DNA of 64,000 nt from Nemertoderma westbladi (taxonomy: Eukaryota > Animalia > Xenacoelomorpha), in assembly GCA_032718475.1 (NCBI GenBank), contig JAUCBJ010006695.1, forward strand, positions 124,001 to 188,000, given 5' to 3'. The translations under genes and the position numbers were made by a program. Of the stretch, positions 12,688 through 50,063 are shown in pieces. Every line of letters starts with the position of its first letter. The first letter of the stretch is position 1. The notes under the pieces were generated by a model. That model ran no database searches and had not been told where the DNA came from. It was given only the letters and a program-made list of their open reading frames with translations.

Positions 12688-12926
12688 GGCGGGGTAGCTC
12701 AGTTGGTTGAGCGCCGGGCCTGCAATCTATTGGTTGTAGGTTCAGCCCCGCCAGGGTCCACTCAGCCTTTCATCCACTGGGGTCGATGAAATGAGTACCA
12801 GTTAAATAACTGGGAGCAAATCTTGGGATAGGAGTAGCACCCACCCCTACCCTCGGGTAGTAGCTATCGAAAGAGGAGCCTTCGGGCCGCCTCCGGCTTC
12901 GGCCAACTGTTTGCTTTTTGTTTTTT
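12688..12926 (+). mobile_element. tRNA-derived SINE
   Basis: A-box TAGCTCAGTTGG and degenerate B-box GGTTCAGCCCC. Central ACTCAGCCTTTCATCC...AAATGAGTACC, hairpin 3' region and T-rich tail. Absent from the inverted partner arm. Confidence 0.75.
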
Positions 12927-15634: not shown

Positions 15635-16915
15635 TGTACGCGCTTTTGAAGACCTTTAGCAGTTTGACCTGCCAAAATTTATATGTCTTTTGGTTTATAA
15701 ATATACTTTAGAAGAAGACAAATATTTTATACCAATAAACACAACATTAGCAGAAGCCAGCCTAGTGCGCGTCCATTCACCCGCTGGATAATCCCGGGAG
15801 ACTGGATTCTGTCGGCTTAAATTATTATTGCAGTGAAGCTTACGGTATTGTATTATTCGATTGATCGTTAATAATTAATTTCTGACTAATATTATTTACT
15901 TTCGGGAAATATTAACAGTTCCTTTAGGACGTGGCGCTCTATCTAGGTAAACAGAGATATGACTTATACTAATCACAATGGTAAGTCGGTAAGGCTTAAG
16001 ATTCACGTATGAGGCGCATTCTTTAGGAAATGCTTAGTTATCAATCACAATCATGCACACTACCGGTAACACACAATACTGCTCACTAATTTGCCGACAG
16101 TCAATGAATTTTATCATATATAAAGAGAATAGCAACGGACCAATGTAGTGCTTATCAAATAGCATTAAATTCACTACAAACCACAATAATATAAGTCGCA
16201 ATCGCTATATATAACCCGTCTCTCTAACCTGTAGTGTATCAAGAAAATTGGGAAATTTGGGTTCTTTATATATGTTCTCCAAATAATATTCAACCAAACA
16301 CAATAGTAAACAGCAGTATAATAATGTATATTGAACCGATAATATAAAAACAGAAACCAGTTGATATGAATTGAATTGCATTGAAGTGATAAGAATTGTT
16401 GTTGATAACAGTCATACGCTCTATAATTTTAGCCTACTAATGTTTCTTATAAAAGTATGAAACGAATTGATTCTAGAGCCGTTGTTCCTGGCCTAGACAG
16501 CAATAACAACAAAGTATCAAGAAAAAACTGTAAGACTGAACACACTCCTTATGATCGACCGAAAAGCTACACGTCGACAGGAAAAATCTCTCTGATTGGT
16601 TCAAGCCAAACAAAGAACCATGCGTCCAATGGCTGTTTCCATGTCAGCAACCAGCTGTTAGATGTCGTAATATGAATCATCACGGCTAAGCTATGAAGGG
16701 TATTTGTCACATTGCAGGTTTTTTGTCTTACCATGTCCGCTAAAACACGTATATAGCAGAATGACTTTTATGTCCGTTAAAACACCTGTAACGGTACCTT
16801 GAGGGCGAGGGGAATATTTATACAGTTAGAGAACCTTTTTAGAGTATTCCAGCGCCTGGGGGGAAACTGGATTGCGAAGCAAAGGGGCCAGTTATATCCC
16901 ACAGAAGCTTTTACA
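15635..16915 (-). repeat. 3' LTR of element A
   Basis: Direct repeat of 33053-34333. Only 2 mismatches noticed by eye. Confidence 0.97.
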
Positions 16916-16923
16916 CCGCTCCC
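16916..16923 (-). other. Short polypurine tract GGGAGCGG abutting the 3' LTR
   Basis: Minus strand reads CTGGGAGCGG|TGTAAAAG. Identical in element B at 48864-48871. Confidence 0.7.
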
Positions 16924-16993
16924 AGAAAATGGGATTTGAGTCTATAAAATATACAAAATCACAGTTTCTAATATACGTAAATACTCTAAACAG

Positions 16994-22868: not shown

Positions 22869-25800
22869 TCACGTTAGGGAGTCCCTAGATGTTTGAGGTA
22901 TTAGGGAGGTGGTCGTGGGAAGAGTGTCTTGCCTTCCATAGTTCCCGGAGAGTTCTCTGTCTCTTTCCAGTAAACATAAACGACCAACTGGGCGATTGAG
23001 TTGTTGCGTCTCAAAGATGATGCCTGGTTTCTTGAAGTTACGCCGCATGACGATGAGTTCTACTGAGCGTACTAAACCATCATCTGAAATGTGTGTCTCG
23101 ATGATACGACCTGTCTGCCACCGTTTACGCGGGAGGTCTGGATCTACAATAAGCACCATATCTCCGGCGCTGACGTTTTCTTGCTGCGCAAACCACTTAG
23201 TTCGAAGTTGTAGCGTGGGCAGATAATGTTTCTCGAAATGGTCAGCGAAACGACGGGATAGCAACTGCATAAGTTGCCAAGTTCGACGGCAGTATTCGTC
23301 TCCGTCGGCAATCTCCGATCGTGGGAGCATGGCTACGGGTTTCTTCAGTAGGAAGTGCGCGGGTGTTAGCGCTTCCAGGGAATCGGGACTCGATGAGACT
23401 GGCATAAGCGGTCTCTCGTTGAGATAGGCAGCGATTTCCTCCATTGACGTCCGCAAAAGTTCGTCGGTGAGATACGCGCGGCATGGCACTATAAAGTGAA
23501 ATGCGGTTTTGACACTTCGAATTAATCTCTCCCAACTTCCTCCCCACCAAGGGGCGTCGGCAGCGTTGAAGGTTCAGCTAGACGCTGTTATCCTTAGCTG
23601 GTCGTCCACCTGTCTTTGGTTCCAGTCCCTCACGTAAGCCTGTATCTCGTTGTTGGCACCTATGAAGTTCGTTCCTTTATCCGATCTCATGGTATTACTC
23701 ATCCCGAAGCGAGCGATCTGTCGTCGTAAACTTAAGACGAAGCTGTTAGTAGATAGATCGTTCACCATATCGAGATGGATGGCTCTACAAGTCATGCACA
23801 CGAAGATGACACACCATCTCTTGACTATAGTCCTCGCACGATATACTTCAATAGGGCCAAATAAATCTACACCAGTATTAGTAAAAGGTGGTTCATAGAA
23901 GCTTACTCGTTCCCTAGGTAATTCTGCCTCTCGCTGTGTTAAAGGCCTACTGAATGCTTTCCTACAGGGTATGCAGTTCCTAAGAACTTGGTTCAGAGCT
24001 CTACGGGGTTTATCAAAATAATAGCGAGTTCGAATTTCGCTAAGAATTCGTTCTCTACCAGCATGGTAAAGTTTACCGTGAACGTCTACAATCATCTTGA
24101 TTTGTACTTCAAGATTTCTAATAAGTATGGGGAATTTGGTGTCAAAGGATACGGGCGCGTTGGTGAGTCTTCCTCCAACACGTATTAACCCATCTATCAT
24201 TGTGCTCGAGAATCGATCCCTTAAGCGCATCTGTGGATTTCTCAACAACAGGAAGTACTTTTCGGAATCCTCATAGCATTGCAGGAGTCTCAGTATCTGT
24301 TTATTTGTTTCTTCATACTCCTGGTGACTAATTTTCTCTTTTAGAAAACGATCAGATATCCTATATTTGGGTAAATTCTTAATAACATGAACTTGTGCAG
24401 ATGTCAATGGAGCGTGATCACTAATGGTCTTCGTCCTGGAGTAGTGATGATGAAAACATCGTCTTAAATATGTGACGGCTTTACAGAGCCGATTCCAGGA
24501 ACTGTAATGATGCATTGCTCTCTGCAGCATGGGTGAGATTCCTTGCGAGACGTCTGGTATTCCAGATTTCCAATCTCTATCTCTAATTTCCACAACAGAC
24601 TTATTTGTGTTGAGGGATTGTGGATCCGAAACATCATTCCCGGAAGTGTGTAATACGGATAGATCGATAGTCGGTTTAAATAACTTCGATTTACTCGCCC
24701 GGGTTTTAGGTTTGACTGTCTCCGTTCCCTTGGCTTGTCTAATCTCTGCCGTAGTAAGGTGAGGAGGCCATTCATCTTCTTCCTTGCTCAGGAAGTCGGG
24801 TCCACCCAACCAATCTGGAGTATCTATCAGTTCCTGTGGAGTTGCTCCCCTGGAGGCGATATCGGCTGGATTAATTGTACCAGGGCAATGTCTCCATTGA
24901 TCTATCTTTGTGCGACTAAGAATAATAGCTACTCGGTTAGTAACAAAAACGCTAAACTGACAGACTTCATTGGTGAGATACTCCAACACGAGTAAAGCGT
25001 CGGTCCAATAAACCGTTTTCTCCAGTGGATAGTCGATTTGTTCCGTTACGTTCCGGCCGATGGCTGTAGCGTATAAAGCCGCCTTTAACTCCGCTCGAGG
25101 AACCTTTAGCTTGTTGTTAATCAATGCCTTAGAGGTAACCAAGGCGACTTTGATTCCATCCGGAGTTTCGACTCGCAGATATGCTACTATACCTATTCCC
25201 ATGTCGCTGGCGTCTCCAAACACATGGAGTTGATAGGAATACGTAGGAAGAACATGGCCAAAATATGCACGGGAAATTATAAAGTTCTCGATGGCAGGTA
25301 GAGAATCTTCCCATTTCATCCATTTCTTCAACAATTCTCCCTTAAGCGGATCGTCCCATGAGTGGTTTTCAAGCCACATCTGTTGTACTAAACTCCGAGC
25401 AATCAATATAACTGGGCTAATAAATCCCAAATGGGTCGAAATAAGTGCTCAGGATACTTAAACAAATCCGTTTGGTCCGAACTGGATTATCTCGCTGTTT
25501 CAACTGAAAAAACAGGATGTCTCTTTCAGTGTCCCACTTCAAGCCTAGCGTCTTGGTTTCAGGAAGATCGTCCTTTATTAAGTCTAGGTCTTTCGCTCCG
25601 CGATCTTCTACCGGTATGGCTTCCAGAAACTCACGGGAGTTGCTAGTGAATTTCGTCAGTCGAAATCCACCTCTTTTCAAACACTCTACCGTTCCTTTCG
25701 CGACAGCTATGGCTTCTTCTACTGATGGAAGGGACCTTAAATTGTCGTCCATGTATATATTGCGTTTTATGTTGTCTATCACTTCTTTGGAGAAGGAGTC

Positions 25801-28800
25801 TCAGTTGTCATTCGCAGTGGTTCGCACCATGGAGCAGGCATTGGAAGGGCTTGATATGATCCCAAAAGCCTGGATGGTCATCCAGTACTCTACCGGTTTC
25901 TGGTTGAGGTCTCCTTCAGGCCACCACAGAAATCTCAGGCTATCTCTATCTCTATCCAGCGCCTTGACTTGTAAGAACATTCCTTCGATATCAGAGGCGA
26001 ACGCGATGGAATATTGTCTTAATCTTAATAGTATTCCCAACAAAGATTGGAGTAAGTTGGGTCCTGGTAACAACTCGGAATTGAGGGATTGGCCCATATA
26101 TAGAGCAGAGCCATCAAATACGACTCGTACTTCATGGGGTTTACCGGGTTTGGGAACGTAATGATGTGTTAAATAATACGTTCTCTCAGTCACTGGTGTT
26201 CCTTCCGGTACTCGCTCCGCGTATCCCTTTGTTATAAATTTCTTCAGCTGAGTTTGGTACATTTCTTTCGCTGAAGCATTAGCTGTAAGTCGTCGATATA
26301 ATTGAGCGATTCTTTTCTCTGCCAAGGGTCTGTTATTTATAAATCTAGGTTCTCGTTTTCGAAATGGTAGGCCGATTTCATACCTACCTTGGTCCTTTAA
26401 AAAACGTGTAGTTGTTTCCTGGATTTGCTTGGCTCTTTCTTCTTCTATCGATAGAGCCTTATCTTATGAATTGGGCTCTACCAGTTCCTGAGTAAAGAAT
26501 CGTACAGCTAGTTCGTCCCGAGTTCTAGCGTTGTAGCGCTCTATCTCATCGTTTAGTTCGTCATTGTAAGCGATGGGTTCCGATGGGTGAATCAGTTGAC
26601 ATAGGTTCACCTGACTTTTCCAATTTTGGTTTTCTGTAAGTAGGTCGATTGTGTTCTCTTCATCGAAGAGTTGGTAGATGTCGTCATTATCTGAGGAGTA
26701 TGGTGTTCCCTCAGTTAGTTCGTCCACCTCACTGCTCTCCACTTCCCAATCGTGTACTTGGTATGTGGGTTCTTGTGGCATTCTCTCTTCGAGAGTCCTG
26801 CGGGAAGGGCCAGTAAAGTACCAACCTACTCTAGTTCTTACTGCATAGGTTTGCAGTGGCTGTGGTTGAGCAGGCCGTTTCTCCAATGTTTCAAGCGCCT
26901 CATGCGCGTTCTGGCCGATGAGGATTTGCACTCCAGGATAATCTGTCTGGAATCGAGGTATCTCAAGATGTTGGATGCTCTCATCCTCGTCCCAATTATA
27001 AAGGTCTGCTTGAGTAGTAGCGAAGTTCTTTATAGCCACCATTTTTACCGACCTTATACCTTGTGTTCCTAACTTATCCTGGGGGGTGGACAACACACCT
27101 ACATAGTAATCTGCCGTTAAGGTAGATTTCCAAACCTGCATAATTCCTGACATATTCAATTTAGTCCGGAATTTGGGTTGTCCAGCAAAGATATCCTCGG
27201 CTAATTCTTGATCGATGAATGTTCCTGTGCTGCCAGAGTCAAGGAGGGCGTTCACTATGTAACTTTTATTAAGACCATGAACTCTTACCTGCACCACAGG
27301 AAATTCTCTGATTCCTACGTTGGAAGTTGGAGCTTTCCAAGATGGTTGTTTGGCAAAAGTAGTTGGGGGAAACTCATCGTTGGTGACCTTTTCATAAGTA
27401 AGTGCTCGATACACTGCGGTATTGATTAGATAACAGGATTCGTTGGCGTCGGAGAATTCGTCAGTATAGAATCCTTCCATCTCAGACTCCTGATCAGTGT
27501 CATTTACATCACTGAATTGGACATGTAGTTCGGGCTCACTTACCTGACTCTGTTTGTCTCGTTCGAACTCACTGTGTAACAAGATGTGATGTTTCGCGCC
27601 ACACTTTGCACACTTTATGTCGGAGTAACAGGTTCGCCGTTGGTGTCCTGGTCTGAGGCAATTATAGCATAACCGCTTGTCCCACACAACTGCACGTCTG
27701 TCTACAAGGGATTTCTTTAGAAATTCAGCACACGTACTCAAACGGTGGGTCCCGTCGCACAGCGCACAGTTAGGTTTTATGTTACTCACTTTACCTTGGG
27801 TAACTTGATGCACTCTCGTTCTTTCTTCGGGTTTTCTTCGGTGCATTCTGTTAGGAGACTGAGGAGGGGTCTTGGCAACCTGTTCTCTCCTATCGTTGTT
27901 TCGAGCCTTGTATTTACTTACATCTTTTGAGGTTTTGTCGACGTAGTAAGATCGCTCAGTATCTTTCCCGCTGTCCTCTTCTTGAGAAACTTGGCTTTCG
28001 CCGTCGTCAGTGTAACACACCGGTGTTATTCTTCTCCTAGAAGCGGGTTTCTCACTTACCTTATTTTCCGATGTTTTCTCTCTGGACTGCTTGATGAGTT
28101 GTAGTTTTACCTCACCATCTAAGAAGGACATGAGATCAGCCATGGTAGGACTTCGTCGTTGTTGTTCATTCATGTACAACACTTTCTTGTCCCAGCGTGT
28201 ACATACTCCACCCTTTGGTAAAGTAGAGACTACGGCTCCAATAACCATTGAACTCTGATATTCATGAGACTTACCCAACCAGTCCAATTGTCTACAGATC
28301 TCCTGAATTTCATCGGAAAACTCTATAATCCCGCTACTAAGGAAGTGTCGGGGGGCTACTAATTTTGCATACAAATACTTAGCTATGTTATCCTTGTTAC
28401 CATACCTGATGTTTAATGTATCCCATACTTGTCTTAATCCTTCTGGATGTCCAATAAACTTTAACGCCATTAACTTGGGAGGTCCTTCCAAGCACTTGAT
28501 GAGGAACCTAAGTTTCTCTCCGTTAGATAGCACAGAGTTCTGTATGCTGTCTTTGTAATATTCGTTGAAAGGTAACCATTTCATCTCATCTCCATTGAAT
28601 TTGACGATCTCTCCCACTTTGACCGCTTGGCGGGCTTCTGTTCTAGCCATCTGCCGCGTAAAGCTTTCTTGGGCCATCGTGTTATTTAATATCGAATTAT
28701 CGGTATATAAATTTCTCGGATCAGTATCAGGTCTATAGGGAATATCATTAATAACAGGTCTATAATCACCCTTAATAGGGTTTGCTATAGGAGTTTCTAC

Positions 28801-30891
28801 TTCACTAGCAGTATAGATGCGTGTAGGTTCCACACCTTGCGCATGTAAGACTTCAGACCTAACAGGTTGACACAATGTTACAGGGGGTATTGGTATTCCC
28901 TTTTGTATATTGACTAATTTGTCGCGTTCTAGCGCGATACTTTGCTGCACTTCTTGCAATTCGGCCCTACTTTCCCTTACTGTTCCCTTAAGCTGGTGGA
29001 CAGTCTCCTGCATCTGTCCGAGCAGGAGATTCATCCCCCGCCGTCCCTCCTCTACCCACTCAACCGCCGAAGCGGGAGTCGCCAACATTGTAGCGGGCTG
29101 ACGTGGGATGACGGGAGACAAATCTTTGATTTCTCTCTCAGCTTCCAGGACAGGAATGTTCTCATGGACTGTTCTACCGGGTACAGGCAGTGTAGTACTG
29201 TGTAAAGGGAACTTAGAGTTAAGCTCTGGAAGTACAGGGGTCTCTAGCACAGGTGTGACTTTGGGAACGACAGGCCTAATTATTTCAGGCTCATCAACTA
29301 TTGTAGGGAGTCTTTTGACCTGAATAGTTTGGTATATGGGTTCCGTACTCGCTAAGTCTGTGCTAGCTAATTGTCTTCTAACAGCTGGGGGCAAATCAGG
29401 CAATTTGTGACGATGAGATGTTTTTCTACGCCTGCTTAGACGAGATCTATTTCCTCCGCCTTCAGGATCGGTGGTTTCACTTTCTTCCGAGGATGTGTAT
29501 CCCTGGCGTTTGGGAGTAGATTTTCTCATCATCTGCATGTGACTAGCAGTTAACTGTTTATTTATGTTGTCTTGCGTCTCTTGCAGATTTTCCAACTCCA
29601 GTTGGGTAGTCTGCTCAAACGCTCTCCGTTCTGCTTCTGCCACTGCTCTTTCCGCCTTTGCTTCTGCCGCCGCTGCTTTTCTTTCTACTTCTGCTTCTGC
29701 CGTAGCCGCCGCCTTTTGTTCCTCTATCCGTCTTTTCTTTACTTTTTCTTCTTGGACTCTAGCGAGGCGGAGTTTTTCATCAAATTCTGCTTGGTTAGCA
29801 GCTAACATTTCAGCATCGATTGAATCTAACACACGCTGGGTTCCTTCACTATTGGGGGAAAGTCCAGACAGCCGTCTCCTCAATTCTTCGTCTCCTAGGA
29901 ATCGCTGATAGTCGGACAGATAAATGTCTATGGCGTCTCTCGCTCGTGGTTTCTCTGAGGTCTCTTCGCCTTCCACTTGAGAAAGGGTGGCATCGGTTGG
30001 TTCTTCATAAGTTAGTCTCTCAGACAGCTGTGATTTCCACTGGTCTGTTTCTTGGATTTGGAGACCTATCCGCTGGAACTAAGTTTTGACAGCAACCTGC
30101 AGTGACGTGTCCTGTCTTCTTTTGGAAGTTTCCTCAAAAGCTGATAGGATTAGTCGAATGCGTAGGGTTCTTTCGCGTACTTGATATAGCAGTTCTTCCT
30201 GCTCTTGAGGTCCTTGGGGTTGTCGAAACAGTTGTTCTTCTAATCTCTCTAAGGAGCCGAAGAATCCCTGCACATATCCTGCTGCCGACCTCTTCCAAAC
30301 AGCTGGATCCATCGTATCTTTTGCCACTCCCATCCTGTGTATATCTTCCCAAGTAGCCTCGGACAGATCCAACGGGAGTCCGGGTCCGGGAAAGTTCCAT
30401 TGTGACTCGACAATAGACATCAATTCTTCCCTGGCGTATCCCGCATAATTATCTTGGGTCGCTCGCTTATTTCTCGCCCAATCTGCTTGATGTTCCTCCA
30501 CCGCAATCAATATAGTTGTTAGCACTGCGGCAGGAAGGGTGAGAAGGGGGTCCGAGTAGGCTTTAGACGTCATCTGCAATCCACGTTCGGGGGTCAGTTC
30601 GACAGTATCCGAACTACTGGAGCTATCTGATCGCTGGGAACAAGTTTCTTGACTAGGCTGTTGCTGCTGTGGGACAGCTGCTTCCTGGTTCCGTTTGACT
30701 TGAGCCCGAGTGCCGATGATGGACCTACGGTGTTGGATTAGCTTAGGGTCCGATATCACTACTGGAGGGATGACTTTTCTTTCAGTAGGAGGTGAGCTGA
30801 ACTCCTTTCTTAATCGCTCAACACTCCTATCTGTGTCACAGATGGTTGTATCGATTAGGCTGTCTGACAGGGTTTGCTGAGTGTCAGACAT
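22869..30891 (-). pseudogene. BEL/Pao gag-pol of element A, disrupted by 4 in-frame stops and 1 frameshift
   Basis: Gag FNGDEMKW and three Cys/His fingers, PR ALLDSGS, RT YMDD, RH LHVFGDAS, IN GVDLFGP/SDKGTNF/WERL, C-terminal LTPAHFL. Stops at 30079 (TAG), 26464 (TAA), 25801 (TGA) and 23574 (TGA). Extra base near 25430. Confidence 0.93.
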
Positions 30892-33041
30892 GTTTAGCTA
30901 TACAGTTGAATGCTTACTGCTATAGTTACAGTTAAAGCAAGTCTGGTAATTCAGTATGACCGTTGGCCTAGTACCGGTAATTTATTGCAGTATATTAGAA
31001 TACCGGTATGCGCTTATAATATATATATAAGTATTGTAAACTAGGTTTGTCACAGAGTACCGGTATATAATTTTAGCACAAATATATATAAATATATAAT
31101 AGGCCTATCGTGAATACCGGTATACAGCTTACACTTATAGTATATATAAGTATAATTATGAACTAGAATTATTACAGAATACCGGTATGATTTCAGCTCA
31201 AATTTATAGAAATAAATATAATAAGCCTATGATAAATACCGGTATGTCAATTATTTTAGAATAATTGATTTTCTGAATATTTAGGGTTACTTGGTTACTT
31301 CAACTTACCTTATTACCGTTATTTAAGCAGTAGTCCAACTGAATTTTAGACCTAGTTGTTGTATGGCAGGCCTACTATTTATAAATCGTTTGAATTGATT
31401 TATAATAGATATATACCCGTTTAAAATGGGTTTTGTCAATATCTGAAATAAATGTTATTATTTCTGGGGGTCACTACACAGAAGCTGTGCGCTCTCAGTG
31501 AAGTGCTATTTATTGGACACTAAAACTGATAATTCTAATTTACCTAAGTTACTTAATACTACAAATTACTTACGATACGGGTGAGATTAAATCTCTAGTT
31601 AAACACAACAAAAAATTATTACGTACGAATTTTTTAGGGTAATTTTACAAGAAGTCTACAAACCAGTCTAACAAAGGGTTAGAATTCTGGTTATTACAAC
31701 GGACAGGGTACTACGGTATTTGAAAATAATAAGTAGTAGTAAATACACTGCGCTGTCCAGATAGGAAAATACCACCGCCTGACGACCTATAGCCGTATCG
31801 CTATAGGTACTACGTTATGTATCACGGAGTGTTCCTACCTGGAAGTTAATTACCGCGGACTACCAGATCCAGCGTGCCTATTAACCACTTTACAACACAA
31901 ATATACTGCCTACACACTAATTACTTTCGGAAAGCACTGTACACTAAACCCTAAATTAGGTACAAGTACTGGTACAACAAATAATCAGTAGTTAAATATA
32001 CTTGAACAGTTAAAAGAACCACGGCATCTGCTGGAGTGACCAGAGCACAAAGTCACCAGTCTTGTCCTACACCAAGCAGCCCGTGTAGTACCGGGGTTAA
32101 TTTAACTATAACTGTATGTGTAACAAACACAATTACTGTAGGAATGAACTTGGGGACATGAATGTTGCGAATAATCGCATAAACTCTGAATAATAAATAT
32201 TACGCTACCCGTACAGAATACTCAAACTAATACAAACCAAAACGCTGGCAGACTACCACCAAGCCTAAATAAACTACTGTATGTGCAGATTCCAAAACGG
32301 TTAGTTAGTATGCGTTCTAACACGGTAGTACGACTTATTCTTTAAGAGGGGATTGACCTTACAGTTATGACTGCCCCAACTTACTAACTGGCACTTTATC
32401 AGACAAACTCTACACAAGCAGCAATCTCTTCAGACCTAATAATAGCTAGACAACAGTCCAGCCTACAAAATATCTGAGTAATAACTATTACGGTACCTGA
32501 ACAGACCACACAAACAAACACAAGCCAAAACGCTGGCAGAATACTGTCAAGCCTAAATAAACTACAGTATGTGCAGATTCCAAAATTGTTAGTTAGTATG
32601 CGTTCTAACACGGTAGTACGACTTATTCTTTAAGAGGGGATTGACCTTACAGCAATGGCTGCCCCAACTTACTAACTGGCACTCTATCGGACAAACTCCA
32701 CACACGCCGTAATCTCTCCAAACCCAACAACAATCTGACAACAGTCCGGCCTACAATTATCTGAACAATCTGAGCAGACTTACACGTCTTCAGCTCAATA
32801 TTAACTTACATGTAAATAAAACCGACAGAAATAAGTAAAATCTCAATAAAAAACCAGGGCTGCAGTCCCTGATTAAATACTAAGACCTACCGGTATACAA
32901 TAATCAAAATCGAATAATACTAATGTACTTGTACTGGAAGTACCGGTTGGGACAGTTGGGCCTACTGACCTACAGAAGTACCGGTTCAGGTTTACCGGTC
33001 GACCGGTACTTTCAACTTTATTGCTTACTGCAATAAAGTCA

Positions 33042-33052
33042 ATGACTGTTAT
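33042..33052 (-). other. Non-tRNA primer-binding site ATAACAGTCAT, complementary to LTR 33823-33833
   Basis: Abuts the CA end of the 5' LTR, has no TGG, and has a perfect 11-nt complement inside the LTR. Confidence 0.75.
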
Positions 33053-34333
33053 TGTACGCGCTTTTGAAGACCTTTAGCAGTTTAACCTGCCAAAATTTAT
33101 ATGTCTTTTGGTTTATAAATATACTTTAGAAGAAGACAAATATTTTATACCAATAAACACAACATTAGCAGAAGCCAGCCTAGTGCGCGTCCATTCACCC
33201 GCTGGATAATCCCGGGAGACTGGATTCTGTCGGCTTAAATTATTATTGCAGTGAAGCTTACGGTATTGTATTATTCGATTGATCGTTAATAATTAATTTC
33301 TGACTAATATTATTTACTTTCGGGAAATATTAACAGTTCCTTTAGGACGTGGCGCTCTATCTAGGTAAACAGAGATATGACTTATACTAATCACAACGGT
33401 AAGTCGGTAAGGCTTAAGATTCACGTATGAGGCGCATTCTTTAGGAAATGCTTAGTTATCAATCACAATCATGCACACTACCGGTAACACACAATACTGC
33501 TCACTAATTTGCCGACAGTCAATGAATTTTATCATATATAAAGAGAATAGCAACGGACCAATGTAGTGCTTATCAAATAGCATTAAATTCACTACAAACC
33601 ACAATAATATAAGTCGCAATCGCTATATATAACCCGTCTCTCTAACCTGTAGTGTATCAAGAAAATTGGGAAATTTGGGTTCTTTATATATGTTCTCCAA
33701 ATAATATTCAACCAAACACAATAGTAAACAGCAGTATAATAATGTATATTGAACCGATAATATAAAAACAGAAACCAGTTGATATGAATTGAATTGCATT
33801 GAAGTGATAAGAATTGTTGTTGATAACAGTCATACGCTCTATAATTTTAGCCTACTAATGTTTCTTATAAAAGTATGAAACGAATTGATTCTAGAGCCGT
33901 TGTTCCTGGCCTAGACAGCAATAACAACAAAGTATCAAGAAAAAACTGTAAGACTGAACACACTCCTTATGATCGACCGAAAAGCTACACGTCGACAGGA
34001 AAAATCTCTCTGATTGGTTCAAGCCAAACAAAGAACCATGCGTCCAATGGCTGTTTCCATGTCAGCAACCAGCTGTTAGATGTCGTAATATGAATCATCA
34101 CGGCTAAGCTATGAAGGGTATTTGTCACATTGCAGGTTTTTTGTCTTACCATGTCCGCTAAAACACGTATATAGCAGAATGACTTTTATGTCCGTTAAAA
34201 CACCTGTAACGGTACCTTGAGGGCGAGGGGAATATTTATACAGTTAGAGAACCTTTTTAGAGTATTCCAGCGCCTGGGGGGAAACTGGATTGCGAAGCAA
34301 AGGGGCCAGTTATATCCCACAGAAGCTTTTACA
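33053..34333 (-). repeat. 5' LTR of element A
   Basis: Direct repeat of 15635-16915 with TG...CA ends. Confidence 0.97.
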
Positions 34334-35859
34334 CTATTTGAAATAATTTTGATAAAGCCATAGGCTATTTTGGACACAATCAACCTATATGGGAGACAAA
34401 CATCCTATATGGGACTCTAACAACCTATTTGAGGCAAATTTAAGACTTATTAAGGACTATTTCGGATGAAGTTGAGTCTGGGGGAGGAGGGTGCGATAAC
34501 ACTAATTTGATTGTCATTTAATTATTATTATACGAATGTATTTAGATTTATTATAAATGAATAAATTGCACCACATGAATAAATTGCACATGAAAAATTG
34601 CACAACATGTATAAATTGTACAACATGAAATGAAATAATGTGACTATGATGACACTATAGCCTATAATGCATCACAGTCTTACAGGCATTTGCAAGGCAC
34701 CTACAGTATATCTTTAACTTTAATTTTCCATTAACCTTTACATTATATAGCCAATAAGGGAGATGCCTAACTTTAGGAATGGTACAAAAGTAAGGGGGGT
34801 GGGGTCTTTCTTTTGTACCCGTTTTGTACCAGGGGTTGGTATTGGTCCGATGATGAGGAGTTGGCTCATATGATGATTTGATTGGATGCCCCTATCTGGA
34901 CAGGTTGGAAATCATTACACAACGTATTTGGGACAGGTAGGAATAATAGAAAGCCCTATAGAAGTGAAGGGAAACACCCTATTCTGGACAATGATGTAGA
35001 TACTATTGATGCAGACTGTATAACAGAACGTGTATATTACATTAGGTACCGTACTTACAGCATGCATGTACATTACCTGTAAACTCTGAAACTCAATAAT
35101 TGGAGATAATAGCGAGTCTTCAGTCATCATATTGAAATTTCATTTTGCTGTAATTTTGTCCTAATCATGGATTATCTTTATTTGTGTCATCTGTGTGTGT
35201 ATGTATGACTTTTGAGATATATTTTTATTGCAGATAGGGGGGAAACTGGACGCAATAAAAATTAATCCCTCTCCAGGGGAAATTCGACGCAAATAACAGA
35301 TGATTACTCTCAAAAATAAAACTGTAACATGTTCTATTGTGTTTAGTTTATTATTGTTTTGGTTAAACTAATTTGCCATTATTTGCCACTAACCTGCACC
35401 TTTCCCTAAATTGAGAATTTAACATTGAGGCGGGATATTAATTCACCAAGGTGGGTTTTGCGTTGAGTTCCCCCCTTTCTCTTTTATTGATACTGGTGTA
35501 ATTAAACTAAACTAAATGTGGAAGGTATGTAGGCAAATACGCTGGATCGGCGAATTTTCCACAATGTACGCGGAAGATACCGGAACATTTTAAAATTGTT
35601 TATTCACTTTAATTCAGTAGTGCGTACCATGCGCTGCAACTGCACGCCACAAGAACAATGACAAGGTGAGATGTTAAGGCCTACAGTACAATAACAGACA
35701 GCCTACCGGTACCAGGCAGAGAGGAGCCAGGAGCAACAGAGTAGCAAGCAACCCAGAATGCTTCAGTAGAAATGGAAACTGATCTTGCATCAGCAGTTGG
35801 CCTACACCAAGTGTATGTCGCAATTTCATGTACGCTGGATTACAATGCGAAATGAAAAA

Positions 35860-36340
35860 CTAGAGGGAGCCCAAAGGCTCCTCTGCTCATTGGAGCAGGT
35901 TGCTTTTGTAGTGTTGCTCTTTTTGTAAATTCCAAGAAGACCAAAATCATGACAGTCAACCTAGACAGCCCTCAAGAAAGTAGTACCAGTACTCTTATAT
36001 GGGAGTCCTTATATGGGCTCTAACTGCAGAGATACCAAATCTCTGGATGGCACTTTCATAAGAATGCTGCGCCGGGTTCATTATGTCAAGTACAATGAAC
36101 ACATCTCCAATCAGACTCTATACAACATTGGAGGTGTTCCATTAATCTCCCCTAGCTTAACACTTGAATGGAACCACCTCCGTGTTGCAGGTCATTGCTT
36201 TCACCATGAGGACCATAGTCAGTGCATAATCTTGTGCTTTGGCGCCCTCATGGAGCGAATAAGCATGGTGGACAGCCCATGGCTTTCTTGAGATGCATCT
36301 TAAAGGACACTGGCCTTGAAAATGCGGATGACCTAGCAAA
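35860..36340 (+). pseudogene. RTE-like LINE RT fragments
   Basis: VPVLLYGS..., DTKSLDGTFIRMLRRV and LRVAGHC. Same family as 9040-9320. Confidence 0.7.
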
Positions 36341-36499
36341 TGTCATGATAATATATATATAATGCAACTGCAATGCTGCATGCCGATCGTAGTAGTAGTA
36401 GTAGTTGTACAAATATATATATGTGAACTTCAAGTTCTTGTAAGAATTCACTCTAAATATCCATTATACCGTATTATATTATTATATGAATATTCGAAT

Positions 36500-36700
36500 A
36501 TTATATGAGTACCAGTAATATATTTCTCATACTACTCATATGATTATATGAGTAGTATATTTCTCATACTACTCATATGATTATATGAGTAGTATATTTC
36601 TCATACTACTCTTGATTTTATGTATATTTCTCATACTACTCATATGATTATATGAGTAGTATATTTCTATTACTACTCATATGATTATATGAGTAGTATA
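36500..36700. repeat. 37-bp tandem repeat with an internal hairpin
   Basis: TATTTCTCATACTACTCATATGATTATATGAGTAGTA, about 5 copies, no spacers. Confidence 0.85.
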
Positions 36701-37250
36701 TTCACCTTCCACAGCTTTTTCTCTAATGCGAACATGAACACCCAATTGAGCTGCGAAAACTATTAAGAACCCTTTTTGTAACACAGTAGTAATGACTCGA
36801 AAAACACACAAATATTATCTGATGGTTAGTTACAACAAGGGTTAGTTACAACAAGCGTAAACACAATACTTAGTTCAATTTCAAATTTCAAATTTTAATT
36901 TTATTTTCCTTTTAACAATTTCCTAGATTGCATACAATCTGGTGATGGTGATGACGGAGTAGCAGACAATAGCGTAACTAGTGTTACTTTAGTTCTTCTG
37001 ACATTCTAGAGGAGATCATACAGGCGACGTGTAGCAGATCTTGATCTTCATATGCTGGATGAAGTCTCCATGAATGCTATTGGAGTTGCAATTAAGAATT
37101 AACTAACCCAAAGGGAATTATTAAAATTACATCTGTAATCATATAATCAATCAATGACAATATTCAAAATTCTTTCTTATGTAGAAATTTGTATTCATTG
37201 ATCAACTAATCCTGTGTAGTTATTTCGTATGGTGTAGTATATAGTGCACA

Positions 37251-38723: not shown

Positions 38724-39080
38724 TATTTTATTTTAATAATTATATCACACTTTACGCTATTCAATTATAAGGCGATCCCATTTCATAAACATTAAGTATA
38801 ATAAGTAATAACAAAGCGAGTTCCATAAAGTAAATTGAATTTATTAATATTTTTGGTCCATTTTTGACTGTCATTTTCTTATAATAATTACAATTGGCAG
38901 TGGTATACCGTGAATTGTACTGCATAACTACATGTTGAGTCGTTCCCAGTCAACAATACTCAACTTTTTTTAATCCCAAGGACACTGCCCCGCCCCCATA
39001 CCGCTAGGTTGTTCTCACTCAACGGTGTACTGCTGCCCATTTGGTACACTGCGGTTTGCAGTTTCGTTGTCTACGAATAT

Positions 39081-40272
39081 TGTAAAAGCTTTTGTGGGAT
39101 AACTGATTCGTTTGCTTTGCTAACCAGTTCCCCCCAGTCGCTGAATACTCTAAAAAGGGATCTATAGCTAAAATAGTGCAAGCTACCAGCTTATTGGCTG
39201 AGGGGCTGTACGAAGGTATCTGGGTTCTGCTCGATCGGCCAACCAGCTTAGGGAGGTTGCCTCAGCCATGCTGTCCGTATCGGCCAATAGAATTTGAGTG
39301 GGCGTTGATTTTGACCTATCCCAGAGCTACTGAACTGAATTTCCTATCTGTATGCTCATCCTCTGTGTTGGACGGGAGCTTCGGGGAATAAGGGTAGTTG
39401 GTATCCTCGTATAGTCATGTAGTCACATGTTTCTGTTGTTGTGTTCCCATTTTTCGCCATAACACCGGCTTTTGGAACAACTCTAGCAAAAACTGCTTAG
39501 ATTATAGAAAGTATAACTGTTACCGGCGGTACTTACCAACTAATCGGCACACGGCACGGACTTTAATTACTAATCATATTGTTTGTACTGCTATTTACCA
39601 TCAGTTATTAATTGTATCGATTTGTTGATGAAATATTGTCATTTGGAGAATATTGATAAATCACCCAAATTTCCCAATTTTCTTGATACACTACAGGTTA
39701 GAGAGACAGGCTATATATAACAATTGCGATTTATATCAATGTGGTGTGTATTGAATCTAATGTTATTTAGTAGACACTACCTGAGTCAATTGCTGTTCTC
39801 TTTATGTGTGATCAAATATACTGACGGTCGGCAGAATAGTGTGCATGATTGTGAGTGTGACTGGTAACAAAGCATTTCCTAAAGAATGCGCCTTATACTT
39901 TAATCATAAGCCCTATCGTTGCGTTTAGTATAAGTCCTAGCTCTGTTTAAATAGATAGAGCGCCACGTCCTAAAGGAACTGTTAATATTTCCCGAAAGTT
40001 AATAATATCTGTCAGAAATTACATATTAGCGATCAATCGAATAATACAGTAGGTTTACACTGCAACCTTACACTGCAATAATAAAATCTAAGCATCCGAA
40101 TTCAGCCTCCCGGGTGTATCCATCGGGTGAATGATCGCGCATGGGCTGGCTTCGGCTAATGTTTTGTTTATTAGCATAAAAATATTGTCGTATGCTAAAG
40201 GTGTGTTAATTAACTAAAAGACATATAAATTTTGGCAGGTTAAACTGCTAAAGGTCTTCAAAAGCGCGAACA
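39081..40272 (+). repeat. 5' LTR of element B
   Basis: Direct repeat of 48872-50063. Two mismatches noticed. Confidence 0.97.
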
Positions 40273-40284
40273 GTAACAGTTATA
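40273..40284 (+). other. Non-tRNA primer-binding site GTAACAGTTATA, complementary to LTR 39512-39523
   Basis: Abuts the LTR end and has a perfect 12-nt complement, TATAACTGTTAC, in its own LTR. Confidence 0.75.
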
Positions 40285-42525
40285 AATCTTATTGCAGTAA
40301 GCAATAAGGTTGCAAAATACCGTAGTGACCGGTAAATCTGAACCGGTACTTCTGTAGGTCAGTAGGCCCAACTGCCAGAACCGGTACTGCTGTAGGTCCG
40401 TAGGTCCAACTGCCAGAACCGGTACTTCTGTAGGTCTGTAGGCCCAACTGTCCTAACCGGTACTGCTGTATCAGTACATTAGTATTATTCGAATTTGATT
40501 AGTGTATACCGGTAGGTCTTAGTACTTAATCAGGGACTGCAGCCCTGAATTTTTATTGAGATTCTACTTATTTCTGTCGGTTTTATTTACTAGTAGGCTA
40601 ATATTGAGCAGAAGGCGTGTGACCCTGCTCAGATTGTTCAGATAATTGTAGGCTGAGCTGCTGTCTGACTGTTGTTGGGTTTGGAGAGATTACGGCGTGT
40701 GTAGAGTTTGTCTGATAAAGTGCCGTTAGTAAGTTGGGGCAGCCATATGCTGTAAGGTCAATCCCCTCTTAAAGAATAAGTCGTACTACCGTGTTAGAAC
40801 GCATACTAACTAACTATTTCAGAATCTGCATATACTGTAGTTTATTTAGGCTTGATCGTAGTCTGCCAGCGTTTTAGCCTGTGTTTGTTTGTGTGGTCTG
40901 TTCAGGTACCGTAATAGTTATTACTCAGATATTTTGTAGGCTGGATTGTTGTCTAGCTATTATTAGGTCTGAAGAGATTGCTGTGTGTGTGGAGTTTGTC
41001 TGATAAAGTGCTGTTAGTAAGTTGGGGCAGCCATATGCTGTAAGGTCAATCCCCTCTTAAAGAATAAGTCGTACTACCGTGTTAGAACGCATACTAACTA
41101 ACCATTTCAGAATCTACACGTACGGTAGTTTATTTAGGCTTGGTGGTAGTCTGCCAGCGTTTAGTTTGTATTTGTTTGAGTATTCTGTATGGGTAGCGTA
41201 ATATTTATTATTCAGAGTTTATGCGATTATTCGCAACATTCATGTCCCCAAGTTTATTCCTACAGTAATTGTGCTTGTTATACATACCGTTATAGTTAAA
41301 TTAACCCCGGTACTACACGGGCTGCTTGGCGTAGGACAAGACTGGTGACTTTGTGCTCTGGTCACTCCAGCAGATGCCGTGGTTCTTTTAACTGTTCAAG
41401 TATATTTAACTACTGATTATTTGTTGTACCGGTACTTGTACCTAATTTAGGGTTTAGTGTACAGTGCTTTCCGAAGTAATTAGTGTGTAGGCAGTATATT
41501 TGTGTTGTAAAGTGGTTGATAGGCACATTCGTTAGCTCTATTAACTTCTGGGTAGGAACACTCCGTGATACATAACGTAGTACCTATAGCGATACGGTTA
41601 TAGGTCGTCAGGCGGTGGTATTTTCCTATCTGGACAGTGCAATATATTTACTGCTACTTATTATTTCAAATACCGTAGTACCCTGTCCGTTGTAATAACC
41701 AGAAATCTAACCCTTTGTTAGGCTGGTTTGTAGACTTCCTGTAAAATTACCCTAAAAATTTCGTACGTAATATTTTTGTTGTGTTTTAATTAGAGAATTA
41801 ATCTCACCCGTATCGTAAGTAATTTGTAGTATTAAGTAACTTAGGTAAATTAGAATTATCTGTTTTAGTGTCAAATAAGTAGCACTTCACTGAGAGCGCA
41901 CAGCTTTTGTGTAGTGATTACTTCCCAGAAATAATAACATTTATTTCAAATATTGACAAAACCCATTTTAAACGGGTATATAAATATTATAAATCAACTC
42001 AAACGATTTATAAATAGTAGGCCTGCCATACAACAACTAGGTCTCCATATCAGTTGGACTACTGCTTAAATAACGGTAATAAAGTAAGTAAAGTAACCAA
42101 GTAACCCTAACATTCAGAAATTCAATTATTTTAAAATAATTGACATACCGGTATTTACAATAGGCTTATTATATTTATTCGATAAATTTAGGCTGAAATC
42201 ATACCGGTACTCTGTAATTAATTCTAGTCCAGAATTATACTTATATACTATAAGTGTAAGCTGCATACCGGTATTCACGATAGGCCTATTATATATTTAT
42301 ATATATTTGTGCTAAAATTATATACCGGTACTCTGTGACAAATCTAGTCTGTAATAATACTTATATATATACTATAAGCATACCGGTATTCTAATATATT
42401 GTATATATATCACGTTACACCGAGTAACGGTATCGGTAATTAATCGCTAGGCTTGCAGTGATACTGAATTACTAGACTTGCTTTAACTGTAATATAGCAG
42501 TAGGCATTCAACTGTACAAACAAAA

Positions 42526-45500
42526 ATGTCTGACACAAAACGGGCACTGTCAGATAGTCTTTTGGAAGGTGTTAGAATGAGTCTTAGACTTGGACAGGGT
42601 CTTGAAAGGAAGATGGCAGAGGCAATGGCAACAGCAGAAGCGAAAAGAAAGGCGGCAGAGGCAATGGCAACAGCAGAAGCGGAAAGAAAGGCGGCAGAGA
42701 CAATGGCAACAGCAGAAGCGGAAAGAAAGGCGGCAGAGGCAATGGCAACAGTAGAAGCGGAAAGAAAGATAGAGACACCTGTACTCCCAGAACCTGCCTA
42801 TAAATTCCCTTTGTACAGTACTAAACTACCTGTGCCCAGTAGGACTGTTCCCGAGTCCGAACCCGTCCTGGACGCCGAGCGAGATATCAAGAATTTATCG
42901 CCCGTCGTCTCTCGCTCGCCCGCTACTACGTTGGCGACTCCCGCTTCGGCGGTTGAGTGGGTAGCTGAGGGACGACGGGAGATGGGTCTCCTTCTCGAGC
43001 AGCTGAGGGAACACTGTTTGTGCTCCTCTCAGCAGGTCCGGGAAATGGAAGAGACTGTCCAGCAGCTCAAGGGAACAGTAAGGGAAAGTAGGTTAGAGTT
43101 GCAAAAGGTGCAGCAAAGTATCGCGTTAGAACGCGATAAATTAGTCAATTTACAAAAGGGTATACCACCACCCCCTGTAACAATGTGTCAACCCGTTAGG
43201 TCTGAAGTATCTCATGCGCAAGGTGTGGAGCCTACACGCATCTATACTGCTAGTGAAGTAGAAACTCCTATAGTAAACCCTATTCAGGGTGATTATAAAC
43301 CTGTTGATAATAATATTCCATATAGACCTGATCATAATCCGAGAAATTTATATACCGATAATTCTATATTCAATAATACGATGGCTCAAGAAAGTTTTAC
43401 GCGTCAAATGGCTAGAACCGAAGCCCGTCAAGCGGTAAGGGTTGGAGAGATCGTCAAGTTCAATGGAGATGAGATGAAATGGTTACCTTTTAATGAATAT
43501 TACAAAGATAACATACAGAATTCTGTGCTATCTAACGGAGAGAAACTCAGATACCTCATTGAATGCTTGGAAGGACCTCCCAAGTTAATGGCATTAAAGT
43601 TTATTGGACATCCAGATGGATTAAGACAAGTTTGGGATACATTAAACATCAGGTATGGTAACAAGGATAACATAGCTAAGTATTTGTATGCAAAATTAGT
43701 AGCCCCCCGACACTTCCTTAGTAGCGGGATTATAGAGTTTTCCGATGAGATTCAAGAGATCTGTAGACAACTGGACTGGTTAGGTAAGTCGCATGAATAT
43801 CAGAGTTCCATGGTCATTGGAGCCGTAGTCTCTACTTTACCAAAGGGTGGAGTATGTACGCGCTGGGACAAGAAAGTGTTGTACATGAATGAACAACAAC
43901 GACGAAGTCCTACCATGGCTGATCTCATGTCCTTCTTAGATAGTGAAGTAAAATTACAACTCATAAGGCAGTCCAGAGAGAAAACATCGGAAAATAAGGT
44001 AAGTGAGAAACCCGTTTCTAGGAGAAAGATAATACCAGTGTGTTATACTGACGACGGCGAAAGCCAAGCTTCTCAAGAAGAGGACAGCGGGAAAGACACA
44101 GCAAAATCTTACTATGACAACAAGACCTATAAAGACGTAAGTAAATACAAGTCTCGAACCAGTGACAGGAGAGAACAGGTAACAACAACTCCTCCTACGT
44201 CTCCTAAGAGAATTCACGGAAGAAAGCCCGAAGAAAGAACGAGAGTGCAGAACGTTAACCAAGTTAAGGTGAGTAACATCAAACCAAAATGTGCGCTGTG
44301 CGACGGGCCCCACCGTTTGAGTGCGTGTGCTGAATTTCTAAAGAAATCCCTTGTAGACAGACGTACAGTCCTGTGGAATAAGCGGTTATGCTATAATTGC
44401 CTCAGATCAGGACACCAACGGCGAACCTGTTACTCCGACATAAAGTGTGCAAAGTGTGGCGCGAAACATCACATCTTGTTACACAGTGAGTTCGAACGAG
44501 ACAAACTGAGTCAGGTAAGTGAGCCCGAACTACATGTCCAATTCAGTGATGTAAACGACACTGATCAAGAATCTGAGATGGAAGGATTCTATACTGATGA
44601 ATTCTCCGACGCCAACGAATCCTGTTATCTAATCAATACCGCAGTGTATCGAGCACTTACTCATGAAAAGGACACCAACAATGAGTTTCCCCCAACTACT
44701 TTTGCCAAACAACCATCTTGGAAAGCTCCAACTTCCAACGTAGGAATCAGAGAATTTCCTGTAGTGCAGGTAAGAGTTCACGGTCTTAACAAAAGTTACA
44801 TAGTGAACGCCCTCCTTGACTCCGGCAGCACAGGAACATTCATCGATCAAGAACTAGCCGAAGATATCTTTGCTGGACAACCCAAGTTCCGGACTAAATT
44901 GAATATGTCAGGAATTATGCAGGTTTGGAAATCTACCCTAACGGCAGACTACTATGTAGGTGTGTTGTCCACCCCCCAGGATAAATTAGGAGCACAAGGT
45001 ATAAGGTCGGTAAAAATGGTGGCTATAAAGAACTTCGCTACTACCCAAGCAGACCTTTATAATTGGGACGAGGATGAGAGCATCCAACATCTTAAGATAC
45101 CTCGATCCCAGACAGATTATCCTGGAGTGCAAATACTCATCGGCCAAAACGCGCATGAGGCGCTCGAGACATTGGAGAAACGGCCTGCTCAACCGCAGCC
45201 ACTACAAACCTATGCGGTAAGAACTAGAGTAGGTTGGTACTTCACTGGCCCTTCCCGTAGAACTCTCAAAGAGAGATTACCTCAACAACAGGTATACCAA
45301 GTAAAGGGGGAAGTGGAGAGCAGTGATGTGGACGATCCAACTGAGGGAACACCATACTCCTCAGATAATGACGATATTAACTCCAATGTAGATCAATGGA
45401 GACATTGCCTTGGGACGATTAATCCAGCCGACATCGATTCCAGAGGAGCAACTCCTCAAGAACTGATAGATACTCCAGGCTGGTTAGGTGGATCCGACTC

Positions 45501-45720
45501 CTTAAGTAAAGAAGAAGAAGAATGGCCTCCTCATCTTACCACGGCAGAAATTAGACAGGCCAAGGGAGCGGAGAAAGTAACACAACAACTCAATCGCCCA
45601 GCTAGTCGTTTATGTTTACTGGAAAGAGACCGAAAACTGTCCGGAAACTATGGAAGGCAAGATACTCTTCCTACGGCCGCTTCCCTGGTCCGACGAATGT
45701 CTGGGGACTCCATAACGTAA
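42526..45720 (+). CDS. Gag-protease ORF of element B (RT, most of RNase H and integrase deleted in frame), 1064 aa
   Basis: Near-identical to gag-PR of A, with ALLDSGS intact. Fused to DQWRHC..NPAD and to the natural pol C-terminus. Confidence 0.88.
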   Translation: MSDTKRALSDSLLEGVRMSLRLGQGLERKMAEAMATAEAKRKAAEAMATAEAERKAAETMATAEAERKAAEAMATVEAERKIETPVLPEPAYKFPLYSTKLPVPSRTVPESEPVLDAERDIKNLSPVVSRSPATTLATPASAVEWVAEGRREMGLLLEQLREHCLCSSQQVREMEETVQQLKGTVRESRLELQKVQQSIALERDKLVNLQKGIPPPPVTMCQPVRSEVSHAQGVEPTRIYTASEVETPIVNPIQGDYKPVDNNIPYRPDHNPRNLYTDNSIFNNTMAQESFTRQMARTEARQAVRVGEIVKFNGDEMKWLPFNEYYKDNIQNSVLSNGEKLRYLIECLEGPPKLMALKFIGHPDGLRQVWDTLNIRYGNKDNIAKYLYAKLVAPRHFLSSGIIEFSDEIQEICRQLDWLGKSHEYQSSMVIGAVVSTLPKGGVCTRWDKKVLYMNEQQRRSPTMADLMSFLDSEVKLQLIRQSREKTSENKVSEKPVSRRKIIPVCYTDDGESQASQEEDSGKDTAKSYYDNKTYKDVSKYKSRTSDRREQVTTTPPTSPKRIHGRKPEERTRVQNVNQVKVSNIKPKCALCDGPHRLSACAEFLKKSLVDRRTVLWNKRLCYNCLRSGHQRRTCYSDIKCAKCGAKHHILLHSEFERDKLSQVSEPELHVQFSDVNDTDQESEMEGFYTDEFSDANESCYLINTAVYRALTHEKDTNNEFPPTTFAKQPSWKAPTSNVGIREFPVVQVRVHGLNKSYIVNALLDSGSTGTFIDQELAEDIFAGQPKFRTKLNMSGIMQVWKSTLTADYYVGVLSTPQDKLGAQGIRSVKMVAIKNFATTQADLYNWDEDESIQHLKIPRSQTDYPGVQILIGQNAHEALETLEKRPAQPQPLQTYAVRTRVGWYFTGPSRRTLKERLPQQQVYQVKGEVESSDVDDPTEGTPYSSDNDDINSNVDQWRHCLGTINPADIDSRGATPQELIDTPGWLGGSDSLSKEEEEWPPHLTTAEIRQAKGAEKVTQQLNRPASRLCLLERDRKLSGNYGRQDTLPTAASLVRRMSGDSIT

Positions 45721-48793: not shown

Positions 48794-48871
48794 CTGTTTA
48801 GAGTATTTACGTATATTAGAAACTGTGATTTTGTATATTTTATAGACTTAAATCCCATTTTCTGGGAGCGG

Positions 48872-50063
48872 TGTAAAAGCTTTTGTGGGATAACTGATTC
48901 GTTTGCTTTGCTAACCAGTTCCCCCCAGTCGCTGAATACTCTAAAAAGGGATCTATAGCTAAAATAGTGCAAGCTACCAGCTTATTGGCTGAGGGGCTGT
49001 ACGAAGGTATCTGGGTTCTGCTCGATCGGCCAACCAGCTTAGGGAGGTTGCCTCAGCCATGTTGTCCGTATCGGCCAATAGAATTTGAGTGGGCGTTGAT
49101 TTTGACCTATCCCAGAGCTACTGAACTGAATTTCCTATCTGTATGCTCATCCTCTGTGTTGGACGGGAGCTTCGGGGAATAAGGGTAGTTGGTATCCTCG
49201 TATAGTCATGTAGTCACATGTTTCTGTTGTTGTGTTCCCATTTTTCGCCATAACACCGGCTTTTGGAACAACTCTAGCAAAAACTGCTTAGATTATAGAA
49301 AGTATAACTGTTACCGGCGGTACTTACCAACTAATCGGCACACGGCACGGACTTTAATTACTAATCATATTGTTTGTACTGCTATTTACCGTCAGTTATT
49401 AATTGTATCGATTTGTTGATGAAATATTGTCATTTGGAGAATATTGATAAATCACCCAAATTTCCCAATTTTCTTGATACACTACAGGTTAGAGAGACAG
49501 GCTATATATAACAATTGCGATTTATATCAATGTGGTGTGTATTGAATCTAATGTTATTTAGTAGACACTACCTGAGTCAATTGCTGTTCTCTTTATGTGT
49601 GATCAAATATACTGACGGTCGGCAGAATAGTGTGCATGATTGTGAGTGTGACTGGTAACAAAGCATTTCCTAAAGAATGCGCCTTATACTTTAATCATAA
49701 GCCCTATCGTTGCGTTTAGTATAAGTCCTAGCTCTGTTTAAATAGATAGAGCGCCACGTCCTAAAGGAACTGTTAATATTTCCCGAAAGTTAATAATATC
49801 TGTCAGAAATTACATATTAGCGATCAATCGAATAATACAGTAGGTTTACACTGCAACCTTACACTGCAATAATAAAATCTAAGCATCCGAATTCAGCCTC
49901 CCGGGTGTATCCATCGGGTGAATGATCGCGCATGGGCTGGCTTCGGCTAATGTTTTGTTTATTAGCATAAAAATATTGTCGTATGCTAAAGGTGTGTTAA
50001 TTAACTAAAAGACATATAAATTTTGGCAGGTTAAACTGCTAAAGGTCTTCAAAAGCGCGAACA
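48872..50063 (+). repeat. 3' LTR of element B
   Basis: Direct repeat of 39081-40272, preceded by GGGAGCGG. Confidence 0.97.

Follow-up and report, generated by a model that had tools for sequence, protein, structure and literature searches.

Probable Tf1-like self-priming in BEL/Pao retrotransposons, with a candidate splice-junction primer in their relatives

Two related LTR retrotransposons of the BEL/Pao superfamily, termed here A and B, lie within the window, i.e. the whole 64,000-nt stretch of Nemertoderma westbladi DNA that was analyzed. Directly after the 5' LTR each of them bears a primer-binding site (PBS) of non-tRNA type, which is exactly complementary to a block in its own LTR, and the same relationship is seen in relatives. 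Comparison of these sequences suggests, with a probability of roughly 0.8, that this group of elements is self-primed in the manner of Tf1, and that in most of the relatives the primer is built by splicing. What is new is the splitting of the primer by an intron in the relatives.

Anatomy and affinities of the two elements

The two elements are arranged head to head, with A extending from 34333 to 15635 on the minus strand (18.7 kb in total) and B from 39081 to 50063 on the plus strand (Table 1). The two LTRs of A, which have TG...CA ends and are flanked by the target duplication AATAG, show 2 differences, as do those of B, whose target duplication is AATAT. The presence of just 2 differences per LTR pair, taken together with the 5-bp target duplications, marks both as recent insertions. 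The gag-pol region of A is interrupted by in-frame stops and a frameshift, and most of pol including the reverse transcriptase (RT) has been deleted from B; both are defective BEL/Pao retrotransposons. Their interiors share 78-95% identity in the aligned blocks, and they represent sister subfamilies. The long 5' leader of both contains a 288-nt tandem duplication (32178-32753 in A and 40646-41162 in B).

Table 1. Positions of the features of elements A and B in the window
Feature	Position	Strand	Basis or remark
A 5' LTR	33053..34333	-	1281 nt; direct repeat of 15635-16915; TG...CA; 5-bp target duplication
A TATA-like hexamer	33864..33869	-	sequence; 36 nt upstream of block; in A, not B
ATTATAGA motif	33838..33845	-	alignment; common to A and B just upstream of block
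A putative self-primer block	33823..33833	-	in LTR; exact complement of PBS; 11/20,000 shuffles
A segment just 3' of block, variable among host copies	33745..33820	-	contig depth; bounds approximate
A PBS, non-tRNA	33042..33052	-	no gap after the CA of the LTR
A gag-pol	22869..30897	-	DUF1759, protease, RT, RNase H, integrase, DUF5641
A extra ORF, 1422 codons	16994..21262	-	between pol and 3' LTR; no family
A polypurine tract region	16916..16929	-	sequence
A 3' LTR	15635..16915	-	1281 nt; second block copy at 16405-16415
B 5' LTR	39081..40272	+	1192 nt
B putative self-primer block	39512..39523	+	exact complement of PBS; 4/20,000 shuffles
B PBS, non-tRNA	40273..40284	+	directly after LTR
B gag ORF (DUF1759)	42493..45720	+	Pfam
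B 3' LTR	48872..50063	+	1192 nt; repeat comparison with 5' LTR

The 1422-codon sense ORF of A is still open despite the broken pol, and its two ends alone remain in B. It contains Cys/His clusters and gives a weak match to the zinc knuckle (E 0.005, below the cut-off); searches for a family, a PDB structure and database relatives found none at the lengths searched.

The Pfam domains detected in A and B, namely DUF1759 (E 5e-12), Peptidase_A17 (E 6e-30), DUF5641 (E 5e-21) and the integrase zinc domain, constitute the BEL/Pao set, and the RT relatives contain the same families. Translation motifs and Pfam positions yield the BEL/Pao order of protease, RT, RNase H and integrase. The TG...CA LTRs, the target duplication and the polypurine tract typical of BEL/Pao elements are likewise present. 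The ICTV profile of the Belpaoviridae (genus Semotivirus) describes elements with a genome of 4.2-10 kb, an 18-nt PBS for tRNA-Arg or tRNA-Gly, and a replication that is tRNA-primed and poorly understood (PMC8742986). A and B resemble these in their LTRs, the domain order of gag-pol, the polypurine tract and an animal host, but both lack a PBS corresponding to an 18-nt tRNA 3' end, and A, at 18.7 kb and with an extra ORF, exceeds the described form. They are hence placed in BEL/Pao on account of their Pol markers and not of the priming described in the profile. With the Tf1/sushi group they have in common a PBS complementary to some 11 nt of their own LTR, but they have BEL/Pao markers in place of the Ty3/gypsy chromovirus Pol; they are not members of that group, yet very probably function as Tf1 does. 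An affinity with the Sinbad/Sparrow/Surcouf (Sailor) lineage is no more than suggested by the hosts of the nearest RT matches, i.e. fish, echinoderms, a trematode and a barnacle.

Complementarity between the PBS and the LTR block in A and B

The sequence-only reading of the window had reported an exact complementarity between the PBS and a site in the LTR of each element, and this was borne out in full, extending over 11 nt in A and 12 nt in B. Both matches begin at the first base past the LTR-terminal CA, and each LTR contains the complement a single time. The sites in the two LTRs can be aligned, indicating that they are homologous, and lie 781 (A) and 761 (B) nt from the LTR end. Between A and B two pairs have been swapped with compensation, as that reading had also held: at PBS position 1 an A to G change is accompanied by T to C in the LTR, and at position 9 a C to T change by G to A. 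When the pairs are crossed (PBS of A with LTR of B and the reverse) a match of only 6 nt is left. Dinucleotide shuffles of the LTR gave such a match in 11 of 20,000 cases for A, and for B in 4 of 20,000 over 12 nt or 15 of 20,000 over 11 nt. Two further observations of that reading, that A has no TGG-type tRNA PBS and that the block is a conserved island in unalignable surroundings, also proved correct: TGG is absent from the 40 nt that follow either LTR, and the flanks of the island show 31-48% identity per 100-column block, compared with 64-85% in the final 650 nt of the LTR. Given that A and B are sister subfamilies, by themselves they attest to at most two compensatory events, and the weight of the argument comes from the relatives.

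Folding of the 800-nt leader gave the core helix a mean pairing probability of 0.92 in A and 0.98 in B, and the block is thus predicted to pair with the PBS across a loop of about 770 nt. A search for a complement assembled across a splice junction found none in A and B, the best being 4 and 9 nt respectively. Downstream of the putative primer there is a possible intron of about 550 nt (33646 to 33087 on the minus strand in A, 39697 to 40238 on the plus strand in B), whose possible donor lies within a perfectly conserved block of about 40 nt and whose acceptor is weak and located in the conserved LTR end. The predicted helix of A is unchanged when this candidate intron is left out. Rfam models gave no match at the gathering score over 32000-41500, and none at the block or PBS sites.

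The ATTATAGA motif shared by A and B is core-promoter-like or splice-acceptor-like in appearance. A TATA-like hexamer at a fitting distance from the block is seen in 2 of the 28 elements considered below, and B is without it; in A, the hexamer and the abrupt loss of likeness among copies right after the block are compatible with a nearby transcription start. The family of A is very abundant in the host, as seen in contigs of public runs, and its copies resemble A through the block but cease to do so within 1-3 nt of the block's 3' end, at 33821-33822. The summed contig depth in four runs from three studies is 66,085, 46,798, 87,814 and 241 at 33824-27, and 468, 421, 334 and 0 at 33816-19, so that the three deep runs lose over 100-fold in depth and the fourth drops to zero. 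A boundary of likeness among host copies accordingly lies at the 3' end of the block, in a comparison of assembled contigs that shows neither a start site nor phased covariation. No variants at the block or the PBS were present among the matches listed between host contigs and A, and islands of the B type do not align to A, so that these contigs do not constitute a test of covariation. The approximately 75 nt beyond the block (about 33745-33820) are strongly variable among host copies, with the sequence on both sides being common to them; after cleavage, the template would begin here.

The complement and its introns among relatives

A query consisting of an alignment of the RT piece of A with 29 of 114 homologues recovered 94 loci at 30-47% RT identity, 80 of them from metagenomes and 14 from genome bins. 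The latter (L081-L094) are BEL/Pao RT loci inside prokaryote bins, most likely reflecting contamination of the bins by host DNA. Among viral contigs, 307 pattern matches included no relative. The LTR end could be delimited in 18 loci by comparison of the 5' and 3' repeats, and TGG was found nearby in L064 alone. Omission of L048, in which the LTR end is unclear, leaves 17 loci, which together with A and B make up 19 delimited elements; the ends of L045, L076 and L092 are approximate.

In many relatives the match within the LTR stopped at an AG preceded by pyrimidines, and a donor resembling GTAAGT was located upstream; joining of the donor to the acceptor in silico completed the complement. 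An earlier search for contiguous helices with tolerance of G-U pairs had scored poorly in most relatives, and the search across junctions took its place. With fixed splice filters, a match over 10-15 nt to the element's own LTR is found in 16 of the 19 delimited elements, as against 6 of 338 swaps of PBS and LTR, although the splice hypothesis and the filters were developed on part of the same loci and the comparison is therefore not a hold-out. Eleven of the 16 matches span a GT-AG intron junction within the LTR, and five (A, B and three others) are contiguous. The self-priming proposed in the sequence-only reading thereby receives strong comparative support across many sequences, whereas the splitting of the complement by an intron in most relatives had escaped it. 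Given this prevalence of the split form, A and B are likely to be intron-less forms.

Three delimited elements fell short in the 10-nt comparison. L064 has a TGG-type site 5 nt past the LTR (L064:56-80) and lacks a self-complement; in L082 the junction contains a single mismatch; and L092 has a 12-nt match with the 5' LTR copy only. L064 groups loosely with spliced-type elements in a quick tree. The acceptor picked out for L082 in the blind scan described below was the palindromic PBS itself and was rejected as an artefact.

The blind scan made no use of the LTR end and covered, for 74 of the 94 loci, the 1.7 kb that precede pol. The best junction complement was at least 10 nt long and lay 0-4 nt after ACA in 25 of the 74, compared with 144 of 5,344 swaps, a set that includes some with a PBS in common owing to kinship. 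In 38 of the 74 loci it was shorter than 10 nt, many contigs ending inside the LTR or lacking the part needed. The loci called spliced number 29 and fall into 21 clusters at less than 75% RT DNA identity.

Natural variation offers two further views of the junction. The sister loci L085 and L087 have their donor and acceptor in common, and their exon end and PBS have changed together at two positions. L027, which is 90% identical to L047 over 7.1 kb, is without exactly the 168-nt GT...AG segment that L047 keeps, indicating that the predicted junction exists in nature, be it in spliced RNA or in an intron-less copy. The contig of L022 stops 19 nt after AATAAA in the 3' LTR and retains the LTR intron there, as expected of an unspliced 3' copy.

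The complementary cores of 28 elements are 10-15 nt long with a mode of 11 (14 elements), and begin 0-4 nt past the LTR-terminal ACA in 24 of them. Their PBSs start with GT (20), AT (6) or AG (2) and comprise 22 distinct 9-mers, a diversity that one host tRNA cannot explain. After a bulge of 1-5 nt, a second helix of at least 4 Watson-Crick pairs follows in 11 of the 28, compared with 18 of 730 swaps; it is absent from A and B. The location of this helix upstream of the block suggests that transcripts of the relatives may start a few bases further upstream, and the putative start at 33833, proposed in the sequence-only reading, may be displaced in the same direction. The cores contain 329 Watson-Crick pairs and are flanked by G-U in just 3 of the 28, and the second helix contains 8 G-U among 75 pairs, a comparison that is biased by the cores having been picked as exact matches. 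With this reservation, the contrast fits a PBS that is re-copied from the primer in each cycle.

In the quick RT tree of 112 rows, A forms a long branch (1.56) inside a group of 99 rows (SH-aLRT 96), and its place among the relatives is unsure on account of that length. The group holds 25 spliced-type loci, and four contiguous rows lie apart. The spliced and contiguous labels cluster no more on this tree than in shuffles, and repeated loss of the intron is therefore a reading and not a result.

Proposed mechanism, alternatives and known systems

Going by the analogy with Tf1, transcription would begin at the block or up to about 10 nt before it, and the block of the transcript would fold back to pair with the PBS, as predicted by folding. 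RNase H would then cut where the paired block ends on its 3' side, again as in Tf1, and the freed 3'-OH would prime minus-strand synthesis over U5-R. If the rest follows the LTR replication cycle, plus-strand strong-stop synthesis would copy the attached primer and rewrite the PBS, so that the pairing would stay exact even as its letters drifted freely, and the 3' LTR would be the source of the sequence upstream of the cut. Where relatives bear an intron, priming would be possible only from a 5' end that had been spliced; the block intron would be inherited if the 3' copy was unspliced, and lost if it was spliced, giving rise to forms like A and B. Both A and B would need Pol proteins in trans. 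We lean, with distinctly less assurance than for self-priming itself, towards a wider picture in which a large and old clade of animal BEL/Pao elements dropped tRNA priming and has its primer assembled by the host spliceosome, such that the transcript freed of its intron alone primes, the unspliced 3' LTR passes the intron on, and A and B represent one of several lineages that lost it.

Among the alternatives, the one that survives best, though itself improbable, is that the pairing is real and has a structural or regulatory role, such as closing the leader or masking poly(A) or splice signals, with priming relying on something else. The bulged second helix lengthens the duplex in relatives in the way of structural stems, with the above-stated excess over swaps (11/28 against 18/730), but the pairing starts, in 24 of 28 elements, in the very place required of a primer, there is no second PBS, and the cores are free of the G-U pairs found in the second helix (subject to the selection bias noted above). 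Slightly less probable is a primer supplied in trans by short LTR-only transcripts, derived from solo LTRs, 3' LTRs or early polyadenylation, and then spliced and trimmed. Such a source would accord with the abundance of the family in the host, with the AATAAA found downstream of the acceptor within the LTR of relatives, and with the joining of the intron-less form of L027 to a long upstream LTR sequence; it is at odds with the cis helix predicted at 0.92-0.98 and with A and B each matching their own LTR alone despite sharing a host, a specificity that a common trans pool would not keep.

It is very unlikely that the primer is one half, or an internal fragment, of a host tRNA and that the match with the LTR is secondary. 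Six letters common to the blocks of A and B may resemble the anticodon loop of tRNA-Asn, which would count in favor of such a fragment. So does the half-tRNA priming described for Copia lineages (PMC6317226). Against this, the 22 PBS 9-mers each fit their own LTR, and both changes between A and B are compensated there. No tRNA genes were found in the 64-kb window or in the 49 of the 94 relative loci that were scanned. Chance complementarity is effectively refuted, for even though A and B are related and do not amount to two independent trials, the shuffles (11 and 4 of 20,000), the homologous sites and the relatives (16/19 against 6/338) all contradict it.

Self-priming by the element's own transcript, the reading preferred here, has its closest counterparts in Tf1/Tf2 of Schizosaccharomyces pombe, the Tf1/sushi group and the Tcn1 chromoviruses, in which, as in A and B, a tRNA site is lacking and a PBS beside the 5' LTR complements some 11 nt of RNA derived from the LTR of the element itself. 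The paired stretch of Tf1 consists of its first 11 bases, with RNase H cleaving between bases 11 and 12 (PMC7175516); the modal core of the 28 elements has this same length. The elements described here differ from the Ty3/gypsy elements of the Tf1/sushi type in their BEL/Pao Pol markers, the loop of about 770 nt and, in most relatives, the placement of the block at a splice junction. For the TAR lineage (Houba, Osr-1) of plant Ty1/copia elements, self-priming has been predicted from at least 10 nt of the LTR being complementary to a region 0-5 nt past it (PMC6317226, in the portion available). This is evidence of the same kind as that for A and B, from a different superfamily and kingdom, and a primer intron is not mentioned in that portion.

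No report of self-priming or of a splice-junction primer in BEL/Pao was found in the literature searched, and Repbase, GyDB, subscription papers and supplements may hold remarks. The accessible portions of PMC3118150 and PMC6238403 have no mention of primer, tRNA or intron, that of PMC554778 none of PBS, tRNA or self, and that of PMC13524379 none of self-priming; those of PMC3601003, PMC3286476 and PMC8220671 add nothing on BEL/Pao priming. If the above reading is correct, BEL/Pao would be the third LTR superfamily with self-priming, beside Gypsy (Tf1/sushi, where it is described) and Copia (TAR, where it is proposed). With a splice-junction primer, reverse transcription would be linked to splicing by the host, a form of control of which we found no report. 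A simple rule would also follow for annotating aquatic BEL/Pao elements that show no PBS.

The window also holds several other features. Two uninterrupted cytochrome P450 ORFs on the plus strand, 37245-38723 and 55786-57300, share 91% DNA identity, and the former sits between the head-to-head A and B. Element A lies inside a foldback-like repeat, with inverted arms flanking it at 13864-15636 and 34327-35005, and next to its 3' LTR there is an array, palindromic in arrangement, of units of 20 and 147 nt. A further pair of inverted, satellite-rich arms with 20-nt and 21-nt units, at 7343-8336 and 11507-13227, probably belongs to a terminal-inverted-repeat element.
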